64,000 nt of DNA. Origin: a virus (Duplodnaviria; Caudoviricetes). Where the stretch lies: IMG/VR virus record IMGVR_UViG_3300037067_011569, positions 1 through 64,000 of that record; one strand, written 5' to 3'. Below, one piece after another: positions 10,168 to 61,216 of the stretch. The position numbers and the translations under genes were made by a program. Position 1 is the stretch's first letter. The number at the start of each line of letters is the position of its first letter. The notes beneath the pieces are model-generated. The model did no database searches and was not told the origin of the DNA. It saw only the letters and a list, made by a program, of their open reading frames with translations.

Positions 10168-11652
10168 TTACCTCGGCCATCTGCCAAAACCGCCCGTGCC
10201 CGTTAGCCCTAAAAACTCATAGGCTCCGATATCCCACGCTACGCCTTGTGGTCGTGTTACCCCAAGAATATCGGTTGTAAAAGTGGCCGACAAATCCACT
10301 CCCGACGCTATAGCAGGTGAGCCGACGCCGGGTATATAGTTTGTTAGCAACGGATCGGCATTGACTCCATGAGCATCGAATCCAAGGGCTTGCCACTGCG
10401 CCCACGTTTTCTCTGATCCCTGGTATTTCCACGAATTACCACTTGCACGATAATATAGATTGTAATCACAAGAGGTTAGCGTAACTCCGCTTGTGATGCT
10501 TATGTCTTGAGAGATATTACTTGCGAAAATATTATTGACAACATCGCTCAATGTGATCGTTGTACTACTCGCTGAAACTTCCAAACCATAGATGGCATTG
10601 CCGACTATGGTATTATTCAGGACTTTCACGCCAGCGATAGGGAAACCTTCATGCGTGGCCATGATTCGGATGCCCGATGCCGCGTTGGAATATATCAAAT
10701 TGTTTGCAATCAATCCTGATGTAATGGCCTTGGCATTACCGGCACCATCACCTTCGGAGTTCAAAAATATTCCGAATCCCCAATCAAGGTCGGATTTCAT
10801 GTCGGAAAGATAAAACCTGTTGCCTGTTATCTGCACAGCATCGGCGGAAACGACAACCCCGCAATTCCCGCCGTTTGCATTTGACTCTCGATATACCGTA
10901 TTGTTTCTTACAATCGCACCGTATGCAGAAGGCTTAATATCAATGTCTCCCTCTGCCAAAAGCCCCGTATTTTTACAGGTATTTCCTTCGACAATCACTC
11001 CTGTTTGGTTGTCTGTTAAATAATCATATTGACCTACATAAATGCACTCAAGAGGAGTTCCCTCGATGTAATTGTCTTTAACATGAAAATCAGTGAATCC
11101 ACTCGTCATATTACCTGCATATATACCGTGATTGTTTTGCGGATTAACTATTTTCATATTCTGAATAGTCATGTGATGCTTCCCCGTTGTGCCGTGTTCG
11201 GCTCCTATAGCAACCCCTCCCCACGCAGGTGCTATTTGATAAAAGCCGCGAATAGCAACATAATTGCAGTTTGCGCCTTCCGGATAAATCGTCCCGCCCC
11301 CAGAAGCAAAAGTAGCTCGGTTTCCCGCTACCGTTTCCGCTTGCCACGTACCGTCTAAATATTTTTGGTCCCCCGAAATTGTCAGGAGGTTTACTGAACC
11401 ATCATTGCGGGTAATCGTATGATCTTCGCTGGCCCAGGTTGCGCGGGAGTCGAAATATATATTTACAACTTCAGAGGATAGATCGGTATTCACTGTATCC
11501 CAATCAATGTTCCCCCACGTTTTCCACGGAGACGCAGACGAGCCAGTCCCGGAGGAACCGACCGTACTGCTTACGTAATAATCAGCAGCAATGGAAGTCC
11601 CACTCAGAAGGGAAAACATCAGAACGAACAGAATCCGCGTCATATGCTTCAC
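10168..11652 (-). CDS. signal-peptide parallel beta-helix (pectin-lyase-like) protein
   Basis: Signal peptide ending SIA-ADYYVS; repeated GN/NN beta-helix ladders; C-terminal RPQG.AWDIGAYE. Confidence 0.8.
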   Translation of the reverse strand: MKHMTRILFVLMFSLLSGTSIAADYYVSSTVGSSGTGSSASPWKTWGNIDWDTVNTDLSSEVVNIYFDSRATWASEDHTITRNDGSVNLLTISGDQKYLDGTWQAETVAGNRATFASGGGTIYPEGANCNYVAIRGFYQIAPAWGGVAIGAEHGTTGKHHMTIQNMKIVNPQNNHGIYAGNMTSGFTDFHVKDNYIEGTPLECIYVGQYDYLTDNQTGVIVEGNTCKNTGLLAEGDIDIKPSAYGAIVRNNTVYRESNANGGNCGVVVSADAVQITGNRFYLSDMKSDLDWGFGIFLNSEGDGAGNAKAITSGLIANNLIYSNAASGIRIMATHEGFPIAGVKVLNNTIVGNAIYGLEVSASSTTITLSDVVNNIFASNISQDISITSGVTLTSCDYNLYYRASGNSWKYQGSEKTWAQWQALGFDAHGVNADPLLTNYIPGVGSPAIASGVDLSATFTTDILGVTRPQGVAWDIGAYEFLGLTGTGGFGRWPR

Positions 11653-12195
11653 TCAATGCTGCAATCTAGCAGCTAAAGACCCGGTCCAGTCGGCGGTGCT
11701 GATCGTGGCTGGGGGGGTGGAATTATACGAATAACTGCCCGAATAATAATCTGGTTCTGTGCCGGAATTGTTTTTGGCCGTGGTATACGTTCCGTTGCAT
11801 CCGATCCAAATATTATACTCTGTACTGGCAGCATATAAGTAACTTATTGTCACATCATTCCAGCCAGTTACAGGGCTGAACACCGAGTACGCAAGGCGAG
11901 CGTTAGGGGAAGCCGTGTCATAGAGTCCCGCCCAACACTCTGTGGATGATCCCGCAGATTGCAATTTCCACGATAACTTTTCTGCTGTGTCGATGCTTCC
12001 CGGAGTAGTGATCTGAGTGCCCAACAAAACGTCTGTGTTTTGGGCTCCACTATTATCTGGATAATCGTCGGTTGCAGAGCCTGAGTATATCCATTCTGGA
12101 ACACTAGCTGCGCCCCCACTCTGGAAAAATATCTCAGGACCAGCAGCACAGACAGGTGATGCGAAGAGCAGAAGAGCTAAAAGAATTTTCAGCAT
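11653..12195 (-). CDS. signal-peptide beta-rich protein of unknown function
   Basis: MLKILLALLLFASPVCA signal; GGAGG RBS; TGATG coupling. Confidence 0.75.
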   Translation of the reverse strand: MLKILLALLLFASPVCAAGPEIFFQSGGAASVPEWIYSGSATDDYPDNSGAQNTDVLLGTQITTPGSIDTAEKLSWKLQSAGSSTECWAGLYDTASPNARLAYSVFSPVTGWNDVTISYLYAASTEYNIWIGCNGTYTTAKNNSGTEPDYYSGSYSYNSTPPATISTADWTGSLAARLQH

Positions 12196-26177: not shown

Positions 26178-26518
26178 AAAAAACTGAAGTTTTCCTCGTA
26201 GATTATAGATATTGCTTCAGAGAATTGTTTATTAGTCATTTCGGAAAGGATATCTACTTCCACACCATTTTCAATCAACGGGTCTGTTACAAGAGGAATA
26301 AGTTTGTCAAGGTTGGAGGTTATTGTTTCAACAATGAACCCTACAAATTCAGTATCTTCCATCCCTGAAGATCCGAATATAGTATCCAATGTTGCTTTTA
26401 TCACTTCCTTCATCTTCAACTGATCTCTCACTGAGAGAGGATAAATTAAAATGTTCCTCAGATTTCGGATACCAATTTCAAGTTCCTTAATCTGCGGATT
26501 AAGTTTGGGCTCCGGCAT
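26030..26518 (-). CDS. tail assembly chaperone (gpG-like)
   Basis: Between tail tube and TMP; contains slippery heptamer. Confidence 0.8.
   Translation of the reverse strand: MPEPKLNPQIKELEIGIRNLRNILIYPLSVRDQLKMKEVIKATLDTIFGSSGMEDTEFVGFIVETITSNLDKLIPLVTDPLIENGVEVDILSEMTNKQFSEAISIIYEENFSFLLEKVTSQLEKLKEKILNLSPTNLPSLKSASVTGIDLSTSSEKDIETEE
26177..26183 (-). promoter_or_regulatory. -1 programmed ribosomal frameshift site T TTT TTA
   Basis: In-frame AGT TTT TTA; X XXY YYZ heptamer. Confidence 0.8.
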
Positions 26519-26534
26519 TGCTATTCTCCTTCAA

Positions 26535-27113
26535 TTACACAAAGATGATATGACCAAGCGGTGCGGAATTCCAAACAGCATTACCACCGGTTACATCAGA
26601 GCTTGCAATCTTGCTCTCAAATGTAAGAGTTGGTTTTGCATTGTCTTCTTTTGCAAGGTCAATTTCCATTACAGACGAAACCTGCGCTCTGGGGAAGATA
26701 ATATACATGTAGTTAGTACCTGCAGGAAATGTATACTGAGCTTCCATTCTTACATACTCAGGAGCAGCAAGGTTGCCAAGAGTTACTTCACCACTTGTGG
26801 CAGTATACGTTTCGGTAGTCGGATCGAAGCCACGAGCAAGTGCCATGGTGTAGGGTTTAATTTCTTCAAACTGACACTCAAGATGTGCCTTCTCTCTGAG
26901 GGGATAAATCTGATCTTCTTTGAGAGGGAAACCTGATTCATGTCGCCAATAGTCAACAGAAGACGAAAACTTTGTGGTAGCAAGAGCACCGATACTGTCA
27001 GAAGCAGTAGAGCATACACCAGTTTTCGCTATGTTCGTAGCAGAAGCGACAACACGAACCTGGGCAAGACCTAGTGCAAGTGTTCCAGTATCTTTGATGA
27101 TAGGACCTGACAT
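26535..27113 (-). CDS. major tail (tube) protein
   Basis: Synteny; beta-rich; FPRAQV and tube-like motifs. Confidence 0.8.
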   Translation of the reverse strand: MSGPIIKDTGTLALGLAQVRVVASATNIAKTGVCSTASDSIGALATTKFSSSVDYWRHESGFPLKEDQIYPLREKAHLECQFEEIKPYTMALARGFDPTTETYTATSGEVTLGNLAAPEYVRMEAQYTFPAGTNYMYIIFPRAQVSSVMEIDLAKEDNAKPTLTFESKIASSDVTGGNAVWNSAPLGHIIFV

Positions 27114-27166
27114 AGTTGAAACTCCTTATGTAATGTTTGAATCGTTTCACCGTTGAAGCCGGAGTT

Positions 27167-27415
27167 TCAGTCAGTCTTTGGTGAGGAGGATGACTGATTT
27201 ATTTCGAAGATATTAAATTCGTTCCAATGGTCTGGGTGTTCCCTCCTGCATGATCGTCTTAAACATTTAATCCTTAATATGCCTATAGCTTCTAATTCAA
27301 CTACAGTACCTATACAAGAACCAATGCTGTCACCGAAAATGAACCTCCAAGTACCATTTGAAGTTCGCTCAATTACAGGTTTATTGCACAAAGTACATTT
27401 AAGAAGCTTTCCCAT
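27167..27415 (-). CDS. small Zn-finger-like protein
   Basis: CTLC...CLRRSC; TAATG coupling. Confidence 0.6.
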   Translation of the reverse strand: MGKLLKCTLCNKPVIERTSNGTWRFIFGDSIGSCIGTVVELEAIGILRIKCLRRSCRREHPDHWNEFNIFEINQSSSSPKTD

Positions 27416-27885
27416 TATACTTTGCTTTCCCATCTCAATCGTACATTCAGAATGCAAAACTTGGTTTCATCATCCGTTGTGTCTTCCGCTTCCTCATACA
27501 CACTCTGAACAATAAAAGCTCCAAGTAGTGTCCACGCTAGTGAAGGATGACTTCTGTAAAAAGGTATTCGTTTCATCCCATCTGAAGTACTCGTATCGGA
27601 TAGATACCCTAGCACTGTATCTCTCAATTGTGCAAGTCGAAAACCTTCATTATCCATTTTCGTACAGCAAAAAACTTTTAAATCCAACCCAGACATATAT
27701 CCCATGTCTATGTTTCCAATTGTTATCGACACCCACTTGTCAACCTCCCTTCCTTGTATCATGGGTGCAGTTAAATACTTATCAAAAGTAACATCAATCT
27801 TTTCAGTCTTTTTAAGATTGTCCACAAAGAATTTTTTTATGGAATCTTTTACATTGGCTTTTCTTGCAGTAGGGTCAAGAGCCAT
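27415..27885 (-). CDS. tail terminator / completion protein (putative)
   Basis: Position before tail tube; size 156 aa. Confidence 0.6.
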   Translation of the reverse strand: MALDPTARKANVKDSIKKFFVDNLKKTEKIDVTFDKYLTAPMIQGREVDKWVSITIGNIDMGYMSGLDLKVFCCTKMDNEGFRLAQLRDTVLGYLSDTSTSDGMKRIPFYRSHPSLAWTLLGAFIVQSVYEEAEDTTDDETKFCILNVRLRWESKV

Positions 27886-52344: not shown

Positions 52345-54343
52345 ATCGGTACCCCCGTGCTGCTGTCTGTCCATTTCTTTTGAGATAGAACGAGGGGGTA
52401 TCTCTTTATCTAATCATTTCAATAGTTTAGCTGATATAGCGTCTGATATTGTATGTTATGTAAACTTGTAATGATATCGCATAGTTAGCTATGCTTATGT
52501 TTTCTGATTACAATAAGTGCATATACACTAACTATATAAGCGCAAAGCATGATATCGCTCGCTTTGCTCGCTTACAGTGCAACGCTTCGCTCGCTTTGCT
52601 CGCTGTAGTCGCTTGTCTTACTTCGCTTGTTGTAGTCGATTACAGCAACTTGTCTTTGTCTTCACTACTCGCTTTATTCACTCTTACAATTCGCTTTGTT
52701 TTCAATATTATTTACTCTATCATTATCACAATTGTTAACAATGTTGTTAAAAGTGACAAAAATTGTCACTCGGTTACAGTCTACATCACATGATATAGTG
52801 TTTCTATCTTGATACAACACTTGACAAAATGTGATAAGTTCTTTTCTGTTTTTAACTAAATAACATCACTTTCCTGATATAGTTTAACGATATATAGTAA
52901 TAATTATGACAATAATCATTCTTCAATCAACGATCGGCTATGCAAACGAAGTAGAGTACACTCTCAATTTTGCTCTGCTCAAAATGCTTAAAAACGATGT
53001 TAGAATCAATATTCAACTTTTTGCATATAAGCTTTTGAGTGAAGAGATTGTTAACAATGTTGTTTATGAAAGTAGTCTACTTTTTACTGTTTTCAATATT
53101 GTTAAAGATATTGTTAACAATTTGCTACTTACTGTATAAAACTACTTTTTCTTACTATTCTGATTAGACTGATTTAGTTCTCTTTTCAGTACAGTACAAA
53201 AAGTAAGTAGAATAAGAATTTTGCAAAGTACTTTGATTTATCTGTTTTTTCTTACTTTATTGATTTTACTTGTTTTGCTTTAATCTATACTGAATCTATA
53301 GAGTAAGTGCTACAAGACGTTTTAACGCACGCTAGAACACGAATTATGAACTATGCAGTACAATGCTTTTCATTATGCTGCATCGTTTCTGCATAAGCTT
53401 TTGAGTGCTTTCTTAAGAATGATTCTCTTTTGCACAGTTTTATGTGCAATGCACTGTTTTATGTGCAATTTCTTGATTCTTTAGTTATCTCAATAAGTTA
53501 AGTATGTTTTCGAGTAAAAAATTGCACATGTTTATGTGCAATGACGAATAATTCTTCTATTCTGAACTAGTAAAAATGAACTTATTTTTACGAGTAAAAA
53601 TAATGCTTTATCTTCTTTTTTGTTTCTAAAAGCGGGTATAGCATAAAATTTGCATTCTCTTTTGTTCGTGCTGACATATAGTCAGAGACTCTGAAAGTAA
53701 AAGCTCATGAGAAATAGAGTGAAGAGACTTTGAACGAAGTCTCAACTTTCAGAGAAAGCGAATAACTGCTAAATTCTTTCTCGTTTGACTGTAGAGTGAC
53801 TACAGACAAGTTGAGTAGCAGTGAAGAGCAACAGTGAACGCATTGCGTTTTTCGTGTGCTGACTAGTGAAGAGAAAGCACAAGCGCAACTATGTAAAACG
53901 TGTGAGTAGACTAAACACGTTGCGTAAATCAGATTCAAAGACTGTTGTAGTTATGCGAAAGACAAGAGAATTTAGCTTATCACTTTCGAAGTAGCATGCT
54001 GAATCTAAGCATTGCGAAATTGACAATTTAATCTGATTAACAAAAAGCAAATAGCTTGTTCTTGTGCTATTGCTATGCGAGTTAAAGCATAGATTGCACA
54101 AAGCGAATAGAAAGCTAGTGCTTAGTCTTTTATTGCTGCTATGCAGATATGTCATTATTACAGACTATAGGGTAAGAACTATAGATAATGATTAAACGTC
54201 TTTACTCTGCTATTCGCATAGATAAGATAATAAATCGAATCTAAAGCATAAAAGACTGATTAAAATACATAACAAGAGCATTTATACTTTATGCTTTTTG
54301 CTAATCAGATTTTCTCTTTTCTCTTTTCTCTTGACTCGTAACA

Positions 54344-54377
54344 AAAAGAGATAGTAGCAATTGCTACTATCTCTTTT
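54344..54377. repeat. 34-bp perfect palindrome AAAAGAGATAGTAGCAATTGCTACTATCTCTTTT
   Basis: Checked base by base. Confidence 0.95.
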
Positions 54378-54410
54378 CAATATGCAGAGTAAGAAAGTAG
54401 AGCAAATATC

Positions 54411-54593
54411 ATGTTAAAAGACAGAATATTAAATGCTACAAGAGATTTTCTTAATGCAAAGAATTCTAGTAGACTACTTATCAGCAATTTTGAAAATGAA
54501 ATTGCTGTATGTAAGAATTTTAATGAATACAAAGAAAACAAAGAACTAAAAGAACTTGAATCACTTATTAATAAGTTCAAGTCAATTCTTTAA
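54411..54593 (+). CDS. hypothetical early protein (no Gly/Pro/Trp)
   Basis: ORF with purine-rich, GG-free leader. Confidence 0.6.
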   Translation: MLKDRILNATRDFLNAKNSSRLLISNFENEIAVCKNFNEYKENKELKELESLINKFKSIL

Positions 54594-54666
54594 TCTTACA
54601 TACTCTGCATGTTGATAAGAGATAGATTGCAATGACTTCTATCAGTCTTTTAAGACTAGAAAGAGA

Positions 54667-54888
54667 GTGAAGAATTTGATTATTCGAGTATCTGATACTT
54701 TCAAGTCTAATCTTAGAAATAGCATAGATAGACTTGAAAATCGTAGCAAAGTAGAACTTGAGAAAGATTTTTTTGACAAGTTCACTTATGCACAAGATAG
54801 TTGTGTTGCATGTAATTCTGATTTAAAAGACTTTTCTAGCTTTTATTGTCATGAATGCGAGAAAGTGATTGCTAAACTGAAGAGATAA
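54667..54888 (+). CDS. hypothetical early protein with CxxC..CxxC (no Gly/Pro/Trp)
   Basis: CVAC...CHEC; GTG start after AGAAAGAGA. Confidence 0.65.
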   Translation: MKNLIIRVSDTFKSNLRNSIDRLENRSKVELEKDFFDKFTYAQDSCVACNSDLKDFSSFYCHECEKVIAKLKR

Positions 54889-54929
54889 GTGCTTTTAACT
54901 TCTAACGTCAAAAGAAAGAGAGAAAAATC

Positions 54930-55391
54930 ATGAAAACGAGAACTGTAGTTCTGAGAAAGAAAAACAATGTCGTTTCTACTGTCAATGCAATTGACAGTGA
55001 TGCACTTGCAATATTTGAAGACAAAAAAGCCTTCATTGCAATGAAGGCTTTGAAAAGTGCAACTGATTTACTTGAAGAGAGGCGTGCAACACACTATGCG
55101 AACAAGTACGAGATTGCACGTGAAGTTGTGAAGAGTGTAGTGAAGAGCAACAAAAGAGCAAAGTCAGAAAAACATGCGTGCGTTAGTTATATTGAATCAC
55201 TGATCGAACAAGCACGCTATACACACAAAGAGATACTTGCTAGTGCATGCGTAATGTTTTCTGATTTAGCACGAATCACGATTGCAACGTATCTTTCAGA
55301 CTCGAAAAACCCATCTGAAAAATACGGATTCAGACGACATAAGTTCTCAAGACTTGCGAAAACTGACAGCAACAAAGTTATGCATTATTAG
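54930..55391 (+). CDS. putative DNA-binding protein; C-domain paralogous to 57560-58261
   Basis: YIESLI..T.KEI..RITI.TY.SDSKNPSEKYG shared. Confidence 0.8.
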   Translation: MKTRTVVLRKKNNVVSTVNAIDSDALAIFEDKKAFIAMKALKSATDLLEERRATHYANKYEIAREVVKSVVKSNKRAKSEKHACVSYIESLIEQARYTHKEILASACVMFSDLARITIATYLSDSKNPSEKYGFRRHKFSRLAKTDSNKVMHY

Positions 55392-55398
55392 CAGCTAG

Positions 55399-55438
55399 TG
55401 CAGTCAGCTAGAGCATTCGTGTTCTGACTGACTGCATT
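55399..55438 (+). terminator. hairpin with TTCG loop after 54930-55391
   Basis: GTGCAGTCAG..AGAGCA-TTCG-TGTTCT..CTGACTGCAT. Confidence 0.5.
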
Positions 55439-55734
55439 ATGATGCATGTAATGTATTTTGAGAAAAGAGAACAAAAGCTAATAATATCAGTGATTTAGCT
55501 TGTCATTGACATTGTAGAGCAATGGTAGACTCTTTTTGCACTTTTTGGGGAAGAATCTGCATTGCAGAACTATGGACAAATCACTGAAACGATTAGCTAT
55601 ATACAGAATTGTCAGCTATTTTGGAGATTAGTGCTGCATACAGAATTTCTGGGTGTTTCTGAGATAAATTGGAACATACAGCAAATTGGGGTATTTTTGG
55701 AGTTAATTTAATTTCAAGAGAGAAGGAGAAAAAC

Positions 55735-55881
55735 ATGGTACTTTATTTTAATGTGCAATGTGTAGAGTGTAATTTGTGGATGAAAGAAAGTAAAGAAAGT
55801 AATCTTTCGCAGGTGGCGAGGTACACCTGCACTAAATGTGGTAAAGTTGTAGAAGTATCTTTGGATATAGATGCAGATTAG
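55735..55881 (+). CDS. Zn-ribbon small protein
   Basis: CVEC..CTKC; leader motif. Confidence 0.7.
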   Translation: MVLYFNVQCVECNLWMKESKESNLSQVARYTCTKCGKVVEVSLDIDAD

Positions 55882-55975
55882 CAAAATGTGGAGTGTTGTG
55901 TTCTTTGGATACAACATTTCACTTGTGCTAGTGTGCTTTGGAGTTAATCTACTGACAAGAGAGAAGGAGAAAATT

Positions 55976-56092
55976 ATGAAATTTAAGGTAAAAGTGTTGT
56001 TCGAGAAAAAATGGATGTTTGTTTCTGGAACTAAAGAAGAATTGGAAATTTTCTTCGACATATTCCAGATTGAAAGGTTTGCTCTCTGCTAA
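55976..56092 (+). CDS. 38-aa peptide
   Basis: Leader motif + ATG. Confidence 0.6.
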   Translation: MKFKVKVLFEKKWMFVSGTKEELEIFFDIFQIERFALC

Positions 56093-56279
56093 TTGCGGAG
56101 GTGTATCATGAAAAGTTGGTGCCAACATCATGGAAACGAACTTCATGTATACTGCAAACTTAGCTATTTTCTGGGGAAAAAGCTTTCAAGGAAAATAGCT
56201 AAGTTTTGGGGGAAAACTTTTCTTTACAGGAATTTCATTTATTAGTCGGAGGATTAGAAGGACGTATGAAATATCAAAT

Positions 56280-56309
56280 TTGTAGATTGAATGTCTGGAA
56301 AGCTATAAT
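56280..56309 (+). promoter_or_regulatory. possible sigma70 promoter TTGTAG-N18-TATAAT
   Basis: Perfect -10; lies within a hairpin. Confidence 0.3.
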
Positions 56310-56389
56310 CCAGACATTCTGTATACAAGTCTGATAGTAGGATGAAGTGATTTTGATCTAAACTTAAAACAAGAGAGAAGAGAGAAAAA

Positions 56390-56635
56390 ATGGGAAGTTT
56401 CGTAATTAATCACGGGGTAGAATTTGATGTGGATGAAAATTTTGTGGAACTCTTTTCAAGAAGAGAAGATGGAAGAATCATTCTGCAAATTCGGGAACTG
56501 GAACAATTAGTAAAAATGGCAAAAGCAATGAATCAGGAAGAATATGTGTTATTTGAGGAGGATGAAAAAGAAAGTCAATTTTGTACGATGGAAAACGGTG
56601 TTCTCTGTCACGGTTGCGGGGAATGTGAGAAATAA
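56390..56635 (+). CDS. acidic hypothetical protein with C-terminal Cys cluster
   Basis: Leader motif; C..C..C..C. Confidence 0.75.
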   Translation: MGSFVINHGVEFDVDENFVELFSRREDGRIILQIRELEQLVKMAKAMNQEEYVLFEEDEKESQFCTMENGVLCHGCGECEK

Positions 56636-56727
56636 CTATTGAACAATGGTGAAAGGTGTTATTTGAGGAAAATGACATCTTTCTTGGTTGTTTGGTAGAA
56701 AACAATTAAACAAGAGAGGAGAGAGAA

Positions 56728-56982
56728 ATGGTTGAATTAAAAGTAGAAGTTTTAACATTGTCCAAAAAAGTGGCGGAGTACATTCCAATTCTTCATCTCG
56801 GAATGAAAGAAGAAGATTTGGCATGGTGGGACAATGCAGAAGGTTTAGGAGTTGTTTTCAATGCAAAAGGATTGTCTTTTGCATATGGAAATTCAGAAGC
56901 TATTCTTCTGAAAAAAGAAGGCAAGTATGCTTGGACTGTTTTTAGAAGTAACCGAGGATTGGACTCAATTATTCTGAAATAG
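56728..56982 (+). CDS. hypothetical protein
   Basis: Leader motif. Confidence 0.75.
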   Translation: MVELKVEVLTLSKKVAEYIPILHLGMKEEDLAWWDNAEGLGVVFNAKGLSFAYGNSEAILLKKEGKYAWTVFRSNRGLDSIILK

Positions 56983-57080
56983 TAGATAGGTGAGAATCAG
57001 TATGATTTAAAGGATTATACTGATTCTCTTGTATCTACAAAAAGTAGGAATAAACAAAAACAAGAGAGGAGAGAGAAAAA

Positions 57081-57311
57081 ATGGTTGAAATCTCAAAAGA
57101 AAATGAAAGAGGTGGATTACGTCTTTATCGTAATGTTGGTGACAGAAAAAAAGGGATGAGGTGGGCAATTAAACGAGGATACAATTACTTTGTTGGATTT
57201 AAAGATTGCAATCACACACATCCTGCTGGACTATCTTACGGAAAAGCTGATTGGGTAGCAGAAGGTAAAATTTACGAAAAAGACGTTCTGGTTAACAGAA
57301 TAATCCACTAG
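57081..57311 (+). CDS. hypothetical protein
   Basis: Leader motif. Confidence 0.75.
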   Translation: MVEISKENERGGLRLYRNVGDRKKGMRWAIKRGYNYFVGFKDCNHTHPAGLSYGKADWVAEGKIYEKDVLVNRIIH

Positions 57312-57321
57312 GAGAAAAACA

Positions 57322-57462
57322 ATGGAAACATACTATGCAGTACATTGGACTCATGGTGTAGCAATGTTGGTAGGATTCGGATTGGGGGCAGCAGTTTTTA
57401 CTGCCATGTATGCAAATCTGATGTTTAAGGTGAAAAGAACTTTGGAGAGAAAACAACAGTAG
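57322..57462 (+). CDS. small membrane protein (46 aa)
   Basis: AGGAG RBS; one TM helix; manual translation. Confidence 0.6.
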   Translation: METYYAVHWTHGVAMLVGFGLGAAVFTAMYANLMFKVKRTLERKQQ

Positions 57463-57559
57463 ATTAGCAAAACGTCAAGGATTAGGAGAAATTCTAATTT
57501 TTGACTTGTGCTAGTGTACTAATGGAAGTTAATTCTAAACAAGAGAAAAGGAGAAAAAA

Positions 57560-58261
57560 ATGGAAAATGAAGAGAGAATTACTATGGCTGTGGATCTTCT
57601 GAATCAAGGTGTGGCAGAGGATGAAATTGTAAAAAGGCTTAGGTTTGCTCACAAAGTCAAAGTCAAAGAAGCTTCTGCAATTCTTCTCCAGGCGATGGAA
57701 AGAACTAGGACTGCAACTAAACAAGTGACAGGAGATCCTGAACCAACAAAAGAAGAAAGCACAGAAATTATTGCCCATACTGAAAACTCAAATACTTCTG
57801 AGGAGAAAGTGGAAGAGTTGAGTGAGGTAGAAAAAGCAAAACAATGGGCAGGTGAGGGAAATGACATGCCATGCTCAGTGTACGGTGAGCAAGACTTGTC
57901 AGACCCTGGATGTGATGCTTGCAAACGTGACTGTCCAGTAACCTTTGCTTTCTGTTCCGTGTTGTCTAACAAGCCGAAAACAGTGAAGAAAGTAGCTTCG
58001 ACAACAGGGGATAAAACGTCGAGAAAAAGAGTCAAAGGTGCTGGGTATGAGAAGGTCAAGTACATAGAAGGCTTGATCACTGAAGGGACACATACCCAGA
58101 AGGAGATTGTTGCTCTTGCGATGGAACAATATCCTGAAGTTAAGAGAATCACTATTACTACCTACATTAGTGATTCTAAGAACCCATCTGAGAAATATGG
58201 GTATGCAAGGCATGGATTCAGTTCACTTGCAAAGGTGACTGATGGGAAACTTCATTACTAG
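57560..58261 (+). CDS. multi-domain putative DNA-binding protein (HTH-like N-terminus, Cys cluster, conserved C-domain)
   Basis: Leader motif; C..CDAC..C..C; C-domain paralogous to 54930-55391. Confidence 0.8.
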   Translation: MENEERITMAVDLLNQGVAEDEIVKRLRFAHKVKVKEASAILLQAMERTRTATKQVTGDPEPTKEESTEIIAHTENSNTSEEKVEELSEVEKAKQWAGEGNDMPCSVYGEQDLSDPGCDACKRDCPVTFAFCSVLSNKPKTVKKVASTTGDKTSRKRVKGAGYEKVKYIEGLITEGTHTQKEIVALAMEQYPEVKRITITTYISDSKNPSEKYGYARHGFSSLAKVTDGKLHY

Positions 58262-58523: not shown

Positions 58524-59288
58524 ATGAACGAAAGATTAAATCCAGAAGAACACAATAAAATGGTAGACAAACTCCAAAAACTGCTTGCTCTTGCAACATC
58601 TCCGAATGAGAATGAGGCAAGATTGGCAATGGACAAAGCAGCGGAATTGATGGAGAAATATTCTCTGTCAATGGCTGATGTAAATGAGAACGGAAATTCA
58701 AAACCTGACCATATCAGGGAGCAAATGACAAGAGAAGATATTCCTGGACTTGGAAGTAGAAAAGTAAACTGGGAAAGTCTTCTTGCCAATTCGATTGCAA
58801 TGGCATTTGACGCAAAACTTGTAACAATGCCATATGCAACTTGGAAAGACGGAGAAAAAAGAGATTGGTCTTTGTCTTTCTTAGGATTTAAAGCTGATGT
58901 GGAGATGGCAATATGGTTGCATCTTTATATCAGAAGAAGCATTAGCAGGCTGAGTAGTAAAGGATACAAAGATATTAATGGCAGAAATAACTTTGCTCAT
59001 GGCATGGTTTCTTCTGTTCATGGCAGATTGCAAGAAATGTACAAGAGGAGAAATGAAATCTCCGATTGTAAGGCATTGGTTGTTGTAAAAACCGATGCGG
59101 TAAAGAAATTTACCACAGAGCATTTTCCTAGCCTGAAGAAAGGTACAAGAACTCAGATTACCGGTGATAGAAGTGCTTACTACAATGGGATAGAAGAAGG
59201 AAAGAAGTTGAATCTTTCTCGTCCGTTGAATGGAAGTGGTTCTTCTGGCAGAAGTGCTATTGACAGTGGACAGAAAAAACTGACATAA
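58524..59288 (+). CDS. DUF2786-domain protein
   Basis: DKLQKLLALATSPNENEARLAMDKAAELMEKY. Confidence 0.85.
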   Translation: MNERLNPEEHNKMVDKLQKLLALATSPNENEARLAMDKAAELMEKYSLSMADVNENGNSKPDHIREQMTREDIPGLGSRKVNWESLLANSIAMAFDAKLVTMPYATWKDGEKRDWSLSFLGFKADVEMAIWLHLYIRRSISRLSSKGYKDINGRNNFAHGMVSSVHGRLQEMYKRRNEISDCKALVVVKTDAVKKFTTEHFPSLKKGTRTQITGDRSAYYNGIEEGKKLNLSRPLNGSGSSGRSAIDSGQKKLT

Positions 59289-59378
59289 TTATTGGGTGTG
59301 GCACTATCCAAACAATAGTGTCATTCCTTGTAATTGTGTAACATAACCAAAACCAAACAAGAGAAAAGGAGAAAAAAA

Positions 59379-60248
59379 ATGGAAGAATCAAGATTAAAAG
59401 AAATCCTGAAGAAACATTTACTTTGGTTAAATGATGAAGAAGATGGGGAAAAAGCAGACTTGCATAGTGCAGACTTGTGTGATGCAAACTTGTATGGTGC
59501 AGACTTGCGTGGTGCAGACTTGTGTGGTGCAACCTTGCATGGTGCAGACTTGCGTGGTGCAAACTTGCATAGTGCAAACTTGTGTGATGCAGACTTGCAT
59601 GGTGAAGACTTGCGTGGTGCAGACTTGCGTGGTGCAGACTTGTGTGGTGCAGACTTGCGTGGTGCAAACTTGCATAGTGCAAACTTGTGTGATGCAAACT
59701 TGCATGGTGCAGACTTGCGTGGTGCAGACTTGTGTGGTGCAAACTTGCATAGTGCAAACTTGTGTGGTGCAGACTTGTGTGGTGCAGACTTGCGTGGTGC
59801 AGACTTGTGTGGTGCAAACTTGCATAGTGCAGACTTGCGTGGTGCAAACTTGCATAGTGCAAACTTGTGTGATGCAAACGGAATAAATAAATATCTAATA
59901 ACCCCTCTTCTATTGTTATTAGATCAGCCGGGAAAGATTATTGCCTACAAAATAGTCAATGCTAAGAACACAGGAATTTATTTCCCTGGCATTTACTACA
60001 AAATAGGAGAAACATTTGAAGAAAAAAATGCAAATTGTTACGAAAATGAACAATGTGGTTCAGGCATATCACTGGCTACTCTTGATTGGTGCATAAAAGA
60101 ATGGAAACCAGGAAGAAAAATACTCATGGCTGAGTTTGAAGCAAAAGACATTGCTGCAATACCAATTGGAACTGATGGAAAATTCAGGGTGTTCCGATGT
60201 AAAATTGTAGGAGAAAAAGACTTAAAATCAATCGGACTTATCGACTAA
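59379..60248 (+). CDS. pentapeptide-repeat protein with C-terminal phage domain
   Basis: ~28 A(D/N)LxG/S repeats; C-terminal IIAYK..YKIGE..CGSGI..KFRV. Confidence 0.92.
   Translation: MEESRLKEILKKHLLWLNDEEDGEKADLHSADLCDANLYGADLRGADLCGATLHGADLRGANLHSANLCDADLHGEDLRGADLRGADLCGADLRGANLHSANLCDANLHGADLRGADLCGANLHSANLCGADLCGADLRGADLCGANLHSADLRGANLHSANLCDANGINKYLITPLLLLLDQPGKIIAYKIVNAKNTGIYFPGIYYKIGETFEEKNANCYENEQCGSGISLATLDWCIKEWKPGRKILMAEFEAKDIAAIPIGTDGKFRVFRCKIVGEKDLKSIGLID
59454..59879 (+). repeat. 15-bp tandem repeat (GCA(G/A)ACTTG(C/T)(A/G)T(G/A)GT-like) encoding pentapeptides
   Basis: Visible periodicity. Confidence 0.95.
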
Positions 60249-60343: not shown

Positions 60344-61216
60344 ATGGAAACAGGAACTGTGGCTTATCTGAATGAGGCAAAGGCGCTTTGTGGGGAACTT
60401 TTTCCTGATCGTGTGTTCCCTAATGTGGGTCGTTCACCTGTATGGTTTGGAAGAAGAGACAAGGTGTTGGCAGAAGGAAGAAAAGCTATTGTGGATTTCA
60501 ATAATGATAATCTCTTTGCAATCGCCAGTAATGAGTACAAACTGGTAAGGCATGAAGAGATTGTGAAGCAAGTCCACGATGCTTGTCTCGAAATTCCTGA
60601 GTATGGTATACCTGAAATGAAAATATCTTTACCGTATTCTGGAGCAAAGATGATTCTCGATGTGAAGTTTCCAGAAATGATGAAAGACATAAAGGTGGGT
60701 GACACAATCGTTCCAAAGATTAGTGTCCGTTCGTCTTATGATCTGCAATGGAAGCTTCGTAGTGACGGTGGATTGTACAGAGTGATATGTTCGAACGGAG
60801 CGATGGCTCCAGTGAAAGGAAAAGCATATTCCTACATAAACCGACATGTATCAAGTCTTGATCTGAACCTGATGATCGACACGATTAAAGAAGGTCTCAT
60901 TCTTTTCAGTGAACAAAGTGAGTTGTGGAAGAAATGGGCTGAGGCGAAAATTTCTAATGAGGTGTATTCTGAAATTTGGGAAGCACTTCCGTTCAGTCCG
61001 GCAGAAAAAGGGAAGATGGAAGAACTTCCCGAAACTGGCAGCAAGTTATTTCTTCCTGCTGCACTGCAAAGAGAGGAACTGACATTGTGGGATATGCATT
61101 CTGTGGTGACACAGTTTGTAACCCACAACATTGAAAGTGAAAACAGGAAGGCTGATCTTGAACCACAAGTGGCAAAAGTATTTGACAATGTATACTGGAA
61201 CAGGATGAACAACTAA
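60344..61216 (+). CDS. DUF932/DUF945-family protein
   Basis: IASNEYKLVRHEE, SYD...GGLYRVICSNG..H, TLWDMHS.VTQ. Confidence 0.85.
   Translation: METGTVAYLNEAKALCGELFPDRVFPNVGRSPVWFGRRDKVLAEGRKAIVDFNNDNLFAIASNEYKLVRHEEIVKQVHDACLEIPEYGIPEMKISLPYSGAKMILDVKFPEMMKDIKVGDTIVPKISVRSSYDLQWKLRSDGGLYRVICSNGAMAPVKGKAYSYINRHVSSLDLNLMIDTIKEGLILFSEQSELWKKWAEAKISNEVYSEIWEALPFSPAEKGKMEELPETGSKLFLPAALQREELTLWDMHSVVTQFVTHNIESENRKADLEPQVAKVFDNVYWNRMNN

Follow-up and report, generated by a model that had tools for sequence, protein, structure and literature searches.

A GG/CC-poor zone in a tailed phage genome and a duplicate gene rewritten almost without glycine, proline and tryptophan

A two-letter word has been removed almost completely from one 3.1-kb unit of a phage genome, and with it nearly all glycine, proline and tryptophan from the encoded proteins. 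The phage is known from the virus record IMGVR_UViG_3300037067_011569 (Caudoviricetes), a contig of 90,361 bp whose ends overlap by 24 bp and which is therefore a complete, circularly assembled genome; the window analyzed here is its first 64 kb (64,000 nucleotides). Within the window lies a zone nearly devoid of GG and CC, the last gene of which, called here the inner paralog, has a sister copy, the outer paralog, outside the zone on the same strand (Table 1). The pair is a built-in control: one domain, in the same genome, is written with and without GG/CC. The codons of glycine (GGN), proline (CCN) and tryptophan (TGG) all contain GG or CC; since these residues cannot be written without the word, the inner duplicate has swapped them for alanine, serine, asparagine or lysine. 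We show that selection on the duplex DNA of this single unit removes GG/CC from non-coding DNA, ribosome-binding sites, codons and codon junctions. The ban acts at the level of DNA and not of protein. The purged zone and the loss of Gly and Pro relative to the sister copy show that something reads the DNA step GG/CC, and this reader, be it a guanine-modifying enzyme of the phage or a host nuclease, is undescribed to date. Our literature search found no paper describing GG/CC-free islands.

Extent and maintenance of the GG/CC-poor zone

The six longest GG/CC-free gaps of the whole genome all fall in the zone (859, 698, 535, 375, 229 and 198 bp), whereas the longest gap outside it measures 97 bp. 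The symmetric odds ratio of the CC/GG step is 0.05–0.08 inside the zone (0.08 for the window phage) versus 1.1 outside. Other steps are shifted as well: GC reaches an odds ratio of 1.5–1.7 in the zone, CG stands at 0.9 versus 0.35–0.45 outside, in the related phage too, and AG/CT at 1.27–1.30 versus 1.06–1.08. For the window phage itself the values are 1.7 for GC in the zone and 0.45 for CG outside it. The G+C content is slightly lower within the zone than outside. The remaining GG/CC occurrences reveal no spared sub-motif, and the ban holds for the dinucleotide in all contexts. The boundaries of the zone are sharp to a few bases and match conserved landmarks in diverged lineages. As a separate observation, CpG depletion is strong in the bulk of the genome and is not seen in the zone.

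Both kinds of sequence are affected, the 5′ 2 kb of the zone being non-coding and the 3′ 1.1 kb consisting of three small open reading frames (ORFs). The 289 codons of these ORFs contain 2, 2 and 2 GG/CC at codon positions 1–2, positions 2–3 and codon junctions, respectively, versus approximately 29, 18 and 18 expected from 13 large ORFs outside the zone (10.0, 6.2 and 6.4 GG/CC per 100 codons). Gly, Pro and Trp account for 2 of the 286 residues in the zone ORFs versus 11.8% in 109 ORFs outside, among which the lowest share in any single ORF is 3.3%. The zone genes are preceded by purine runs that lack GG, in contrast to the AGGAG ahead of other genes of the phage. The inner ORF also contains a perfect 26-bp palindrome (55026–55051), which holds two of the rare GG/CC (55030 and 55046) and is not present in related phages.

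The zone is found in four lineages: the window phage, a related 91-kb phage recovered in three assemblies (L001, L009 and G001), a 32-kb NCBI metagenome contig (L051) and a 1.4-kb contig (L053). In the window phage 13 GG/CC remain in 3,126 bp. The zone of the 91-kb relative spans 3,359 bp with 10 GG/CC, including 2,630 bp without any, and is likewise the sole zone of a complete genome. The two contigs show 1 GG/CC in 2,332 bp (L051) and none in 1,089 bp (L053), which brings the sum to 24 GG/CC in ~9.9 kb versus ~550 expected. Between lineages 58–87% of synonymous sites differ versus 17–37% of non-synonymous sites; for orthologs of the inner gene in three lineages, the proportions of differing non-synonymous (pN) and synonymous (pS) sites are 0.35–0.37 and 0.85–0.87. 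With synonymous sites near saturation and non-synonymous divergence lower, the zone genes must be functional and the ban long maintained, and codon comparisons indicate that the inner copy is under purifying selection. The inner proteins of the four lineages (142–167 residues each) contain 2, 0, 0 and 0 Gly, Pro and Trp in total, versus 23, 27 and 22 in the outer proteins of the three lineages where the outer copy was recovered. This contrast between sister copies, repeated in four near-saturated lineages, means that selection against a two-base word can be strong enough to eliminate three amino acids from proteins and GGAG from ribosome-binding sites.

A mutational process tied to sequence context, such as deamination of C within CC where single strands are exposed, might erode GG/CC, and the enrichment of AG/CT and the slightly lower G+C content of the zone speak for it. 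Deamination does not explain the enrichment of GC and CG, however, and the boundaries are sharp and fall at landmarks conserved between diverged lineages. Purifying selection acts on the zone genes, and in one lineage the few remaining GG sit in repeated operator-like palindromes. Given the GC and CG enrichment, the sharp conserved boundaries and the purifying selection, we consider a mutational origin very improbable.

Scanning four other phages with Que gene clusters (G002, G003, G004 and G005) for zones depleted in any dinucleotide gave none that we count. In G003 (26400–27400), about 1 kb of AT-rich DNA of low complexity, built from TATACATG-like units, has a low AG/CT content (observed/expected 0.35); this stretch, situated between the G5 part of the landmark described below and an inner-like paralog, was not counted as a zone. 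Two accompanying signatures were considered and rejected. Co-depletion of GATC in the zone appeared in two lineages (2 versus 8.3 and 3 versus 10.9 expected) but not in the third (7 versus 6.9). Relaxed avoidance, within the zone, of 6-bp palindromes purged elsewhere (observed/expected 0.40 and 0.42 versus 0.12–0.17 in the rest of the genome) also failed in the third lineage (0 versus 11.2), the combined P of ~0.01 being post hoc.

The rewritten paralog and its family

The initial annotation of this DNA aligned the C-terminal part of the inner copy with the outer copy, reported four Gly and one Pro of the outer copy as replaced, and singled out the heptapeptide NPSEKYG as the sole site retaining P and G and as the source of three of the 13 GG/CC of the zone. 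These readings are borne out. BLASTP aligns the two proteins with 43 identities in 81 positions (53%, E 4e-26); over the last 66 aligned residues, Gly and Pro number 5 and 2 in the outer copy but only 1 each in the inner copy, where both lie within NPSEKYG, whose codons hold the GG/CC at 55310, 55311 and 55326. The D..KN..Y core of the domain is intact in the inner copy, and none of its codons needs GG/CC.

The annotation also proposed a putative DNA-binding domain, which is supported at the level of the fold only. An AlphaFold2 model of the outer domain (predicted local distance difference test score, pLDDT, 87) has helices at residues 9–22, 27–37 and 43–53 and strands at 72–74 and 77–79 that form a beta-hairpin. 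The model of the inner copy begins with a ~50-residue N-terminal helix (residues 23–72), followed by a domain of the same topology (pLDDT 94–98), and the inner copy is thus predicted to retain the winged-helix fold, a prediction of limited weight because its alignment is dominated by relatives that bear Gly and Pro. Foldseek matches are weak; the best VIA-align matches, all of them winged-helix domains, score Z 6–8 over 57–68 residues, a range which common folds can reach by chance. Placed on the model, the replacements in the inner copy would be G to A at the helix 1 C-cap, P to S or N in the helix 2–3 turn, G to K in the loop that precedes the wing and G to N in the wing turn. The pair may serve to show, in a natural setting, at which positions a winged helix tolerates the loss of Gly and Pro, and which residues can take their place.

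The outer domain, searched against 1.84 billion representative proteins, yielded 33 relatives at E ≤ 1e-3. They form an uncharacterized family, here termed 'DSKNPKY', with a ~65-residue C-terminal domain and the motif T..[ST]D.KN.KY, in which T, D, N and Y are invariant and K is near-invariant; the inner and outer copies and a third paralog in a modification operon all align with the invariant columns. In the family consensus a Gly follows helix 1 and [YF]P holds a Pro; the string SDSKNPKY is also part of it, as is, in many members, a Gly in the last turn. None of the paralogs matches a Pfam, PHROG or PDB sequence family. For most family members the contig is too short to reveal gene context, and the outer type is found alongside early genes of the DUF932 and DUF2786 families.

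Homologs outside zones keep the residues that the inner copy has lost, which supports the view that the zone caused the loss of Gly and Pro at the level of DNA. The domain in 35 such homologs has a median of 6 Gly, Pro and Trp (range 2–10), versus 2 and 0 in the two zone copies scored; almost all of the homologs have the Pro of [YF]P, and about 30 of 32 have the Gly after helix 1. The homologs are thus not equally poor in Gly and Pro, the outcome that the annotation had named as fatal to its claim, although their low tail overlaps with the zone copies. Several points weigh against this reading. In the domain, one out-of-zone homolog has only 2 Gly, Pro and Trp, and two others have 3; the Gly after helix 1 is missing from a few; and the inner-like copy of G003 has no Gly in the domain even though the DNA of G003 shows no ban. 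Because of the overlapping tail, the strongest evidence comes from the comparison of sister copies within a genome together with whole-protein counts, and not from the domain count alone. In whole proteins, out-of-zone relatives have 6–35 Gly, Pro and Trp, except for an 819-residue protein with 74.

The same low-tail homologs and the copy with a Gly-free domain in G003, which has no zone, might be taken to mean that the inner ORF is no gene at all, or that its poverty in Gly and Pro is ordinary variation within the family. The present results come close to refuting this: the inner whole-protein counts of 2, 0, 0 and 0 lie below those of all relatives outside zones, the same ban runs through the 2 kb of flanking non-coding DNA and across codon junctions, and pN of the inner gene is far below pS. 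We regard such an artifact or chance effect as extremely improbable.

Maximum-likelihood analysis places the inner copies in one clade (support 100/99), nested with the outer copies of the same phage group at 93/91. The nesting within the outer type identifies the inner gene as an outer-type duplicate that predates the split of the lineages, and implies that Gly and Pro were lost on the inner branch.

The claim that NPSEKYG is invariant and functionally essential fares less well. The heptapeptide is indeed shared by the inner and outer copies of the window phage, but its invariance does not extend to the third paralog, the wider family or the corresponding gene of related phages. In the other three lineages the inner genes have NERYF at this place, with neither P nor G, and the outer genes NVKYF; the family consensus is NPKY, and several out-of-zone members have V, M, S, E or A in place of the Pro. 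The window phage alone has the extra P-S and G, and it has them in both copies. The reading of the motif as essential is not supported, given the NERYF of other lineages and the variable Pro of the family, and these alignments show that the P and G left in NPSEKYG are not under functional protection. The stretch most likely passed from the outer to the inner copy by gene conversion in the lineage of the window phage, unpurged since. The 30 nt around NPSEKYG are ~77% identical between the copies, which suggests that the conversion event was not recent.

Genome setting and candidate readers of GG/CC

The genome is that of a tailed phage, with terminase, head protease and major head protein genes on the minus strand between 10 and 50 kb. 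From 50 kb on, the plus strand carries small early genes, including DUF2786/DUF7168, DUF932 and pentapeptide-repeat proteins. Neither the DNA of the region nor the TerL and operon paralog proteins have a match among 50,697 isolated phage genomes, a search of the capsid protein against species genomes for a host gave no match, and the region contains no Rfam family and no tRNA. One pentapeptide-repeat protein (59334–60248) is encoded by highly repetitive DNA and is flanked by the DUF2786/DUF7168 (58524–59288) and DUF932 (60344–61216) genes, a set typical of anti-restriction or leading regions of mobile elements.

Table 1. Features of the GG/CC-poor zone and of the three paralogs (window coordinates unless another source is named)
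Feature	Position	Strand	Description
Landmark at the 5′ edge of the zone	52348-52398	+	C5 run, conserved loop ending ATAGA, G5 run; the runs can pair
GG/CC-poor zone	52398-55523 (3,126 bp)		13 GG/CC versus ~165 expected; sole such zone in the 90.4-kb genome
Operator-like repeats	52731, 53047, 53110, 53439-53542; L001 5040-5300		Repeated sequence
Conserved non-coding stretch	53990-54385	+	Ends in a hairpin and T-run (54344-54377) just upstream of the first zone ORF
First small zone ORF	54411-54593	+	60 aa, helical; no Gly, Pro or Trp; poorly conserved among lineages
Second zone gene	54667-54888	+	73 aa, CxxC...CxxC zinc-ribbon-like motif; no Gly, Pro or Trp; kept in four lineages
Inner paralog	54930-55391	+	153 aa; 1 Gly, 1 Pro, 0 Trp; last gene of the zone
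Inner C-terminal domain, predicted winged helix	55146-55391	+	About residues 73-153; conserved Gly/Pro replaced by A, S, N
NPSEKYG codons	55308-55328	+	GG/CC at 55310, 55311, 55326; extra P-S and G common to the two copies of this phage only
Hairpin after the stop codon of the inner gene	55400-55435	+	Conserved in related phages
Outer paralog	57560-58261	+	233 aa; 23 Gly+Pro+Trp; N-terminal helical part, Cys-rich motif, predicted C-terminal winged helix (58019-58261)
Third paralog, operon copy	Genome 76382-77032 (L003:12382-13032)		Past the window end; between QueE and Gat-QueC

The landmark at the 5′ edge of the zone has a counterpart in the 91-kb relative (L001:4505–4555). In the distant phage G003, which has no GG/CC ban, its G5 part followed by TATCTC occurs near 27460 on the minus strand, 1.3 kb upstream of the inner-like paralog. 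A search for the landmark in viral contigs returned the already known relative only. The landmark lies 2.5 kb from the terminase genes, and the early genes all point away from it. It may be a packaging or end site. Farther into the zone, the conserved non-coding stretch has counterparts at L001:6068–6512 and L051:794–1236, in lineages whose synonymous sites are near saturation. The sequence of its terminal hairpin differs among lineages with the pairing kept, and RNAalifold predicts a long closing helix with several compensatory pairs, which makes the stretch a candidate structured GG/CC-free RNA of ~400 nt, with no Rfam match. The hairpin after the inner gene is probably the terminator of the zone gene block, and the zone ends ~90 bp beyond it. 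None of the three zone proteins has a Pfam or PHROG match above chance, an anti-defense family or a nuclease signature. The non-coding part of the zone also contains, and confines, two operator-like repeats, the 12-bp palindrome ATTGTTAACAAT and the 12-mer TTTATGTGCAAT, each present three times. The 91-kb relative has in their place three copies of a GTGACAAT...ATTGTCA palindrome, which hold the sole GG of that part of its zone.

The explanation we put forward, with slightly less than even confidence, is that the zone is a selected GG/CC-free first-expressed unit which carries a rewritten functional duplicate and evades a factor acting on GG. The landmark near the packaging genes, the operator-like palindromes, the candidate RNA and the putative terminator would make it a self-contained unit, whose lack of GG/CC would serve to evade a factor acting on GG steps in duplex DNA. 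It is plausible that the inner copy is needed at once on entry and the outer copy later, and the three paralogs, encoded in the zone, the early region and the modification operon, might act as dimeric DNA binders at successive times.

As the factor acting on GG we rank first, tentatively, a 7-deazaguanine mark of the DpdA type made by the phage itself. The third paralog lies in an operon with the order QueD, QueE, paralog, Gat-QueC, FolE, a QueF-like protein and a DpdA homolog, the Que proteins and FolE being assigned by Pfam. The DpdA homolog is a 328-residue ORF that matches phage 'queuine tRNA-ribosyltransferase' (DpdA) genes at ~32% identity with E down to 7e-37, and DpdA is present in every zone lineage with enough sequence recovered to look. 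In diverse uncultured phages (L005 and L014–L023 among them), 10 of the 13 loci checked (9 of 11 IMG/VR loci plus L005) have a family member immediately upstream of QueC, and the same holds for the complete phage G003 (paralog at 11607–12101). This placement is not mentioned in a paper on 7-deazaguanine systems (PMC10516641), and it makes the uncharacterized winged-helix family a regular member of phage 7-deazaguanine gene clusters. If the phage marks its own GG, the zone would be the sole DNA entering the cell unmarked, and so the part readable by host proteins. Such a mark fits the data because DpdA is present, because DpdA targets span 2–3 nt and because the family is tied to the operon.

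Two observations count against an own mark. In the bulk genome, 6-bp palindromes with GG/CC have an observed/expected ratio of 0.43–0.44, versus 0.38–0.41 for those with GA/TC and 0.62–0.72 for other G/C-containing palindromes; being avoided about as much as the GA/TC ones, the GG sites show no sign of special protection, though the test is a weak one. The zone is absent from other phages that carry a Que/DpdA cluster of this kind, and one of these is complete and has three paralogs. A fuller version, in which DpdA marks GG genome-wide, the inner protein is a pioneer factor and the operon paralog, kept between QueE and QueC in many phages, an undescribed DNA-targeting or regulatory subunit of the modification system, we consider distinctly unlikely. 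The inner protein, made within the first minutes, would then let the host machinery read the marked genome. If this were true, motif-free cassettes would offer a general way to read the modification target of a phage from its sequence.

Ranked second as the factor acting on GG, and rather unlikely, is a host nuclease or a reader of the protospacer-adjacent motif (PAM) of clustered regularly interspaced short palindromic repeat (CRISPR) systems. The host-defense account as a whole, to which we give the same low credence, holds that the zone is leading DNA exposed before anti-defense functions are made, in which nuclease sites or PAMs containing GG/CC are selected against (PAMs being NGG for type II-A and CC for type I-F), the recoding of the inner gene being a by-product. 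The ban is strand-symmetric and sharply bounded, as this account would have it; the zone starts at a conserved landmark 2.5 kb from terminase, with the early genes pointing away from it, and has a probable terminator at its end; and the L051 contig of a relative starts no more than ~75 bp from where the zone is predicted to begin. Many 6-bp palindromes are strongly avoided throughout both complete genomes, the window phage (G000) and its 91-kb relative (G001): AGATCT occurs 0 times in each versus 49 and 48.5 expected, and AACGTT, GCATGC, ATCGAT, GAGCTC, CAGCTG and TCTAGA are near zero. Avoidance of this strength indicates heavy restriction pressure. It coexists, as a side observation, with the 7-deazaguanine system.

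The ban, however, covers GG/CC in every context, and we know of no restriction enzyme that reads a bare dinucleotide. The phage has no match among isolated phages, and its capsid protein none in species genomes; the co-depletion of GATC and the relaxed palindrome avoidance failed to replicate in the third lineage, and the zone proteins match no known anti-defense family. PAM depletion in the literature is genome-wide and mild (PMC4246573), in contrast to the local and absolute ban seen here. A precedent for host defense as the selecting force is the first-step DNA of phage T5, within which alone EcoRI sites and CRISPR targets are harmful (bioRxiv 10.1101/866236).

A further reading follows the hypothesis proposed for A1 of T5, an idea in print for the first-step DNA of that phage (bioRxiv 10.1101/866236). 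A pre-early function of the phage would degrade host DNA wherever it carries GG/CC-containing sites, at a time when the zone alone has entered the cell, and the zone would have to lack such sites, a logical fit to a local, absolute and strand-symmetric ban. The zone encodes only three small proteins (60, 73 and 153 residues), though, and none of them bears a nuclease signature; GG/CC is at its normal level in the remaining genome, which would have to be protected by other means; and the proposal relies on two-step entry, here a supposition. We therefore judge a nuclease of the phage itself improbable.

Comparison with known systems

Restriction-site avoidance and PAM depletion are established cases of selection against short words that overrides codon choice (PMC4246573, PMC4687349), and the genome studied here likewise avoids classical 6-bp palindromes. 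The known cases are genome-wide and partial and concern sites of 4–8 bp or PAMs, whereas the zone is local and near-absolute, concerns 2 bp and alters protein. The banned word is a dinucleotide in all contexts and not the 4–8 bp site of a host enzyme, and its depletion is confined to 3.1 of 90.4 kb, with a CC/GG odds ratio of 1.1 elsewhere, unlike PAM depletion.

The domain shared by the paralogs resembles, in the models, the winged helices of Fur/PerR, MecI/BlaI, the N-terminal domain of ArgR and PadR, with three helices and a beta-hairpin wing. It differs from known winged helix-turn-helix domains in that its most conserved motif (D..KN.KY) is predicted to lie after helix 3 and not in it.

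Closer in organization are the first-step (pre-early) DNA of T5 and the leading region of T7, each a short leading unit of small genes that lacks nuclease targets common in the rest of the genome, much as the zone lacks GG/CC. The banned word here differs from theirs in being a bare dinucleotide on both strands, whose absence removes three amino acids and the Shine-Dalgarno GGAG, and Pfam and PHROG searches find no A1 or A2 homologs in the zone. The T5 and T7 units lead into the cell, and by analogy the zone may do so as well.

Published DpdA systems recognize targets of 2–3 nt: GA and GGC in CAjan (PMC7544227) and GA in iggy (PMC10484667). None of them targets GG as such, and no published DpdA genome is reported with a motif-free, presumably unmodified island. 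The window phage nevertheless resembles these systems in having the full pathway with a DpdA homolog and, in its zone, a banned word of the size of a DpdA target.

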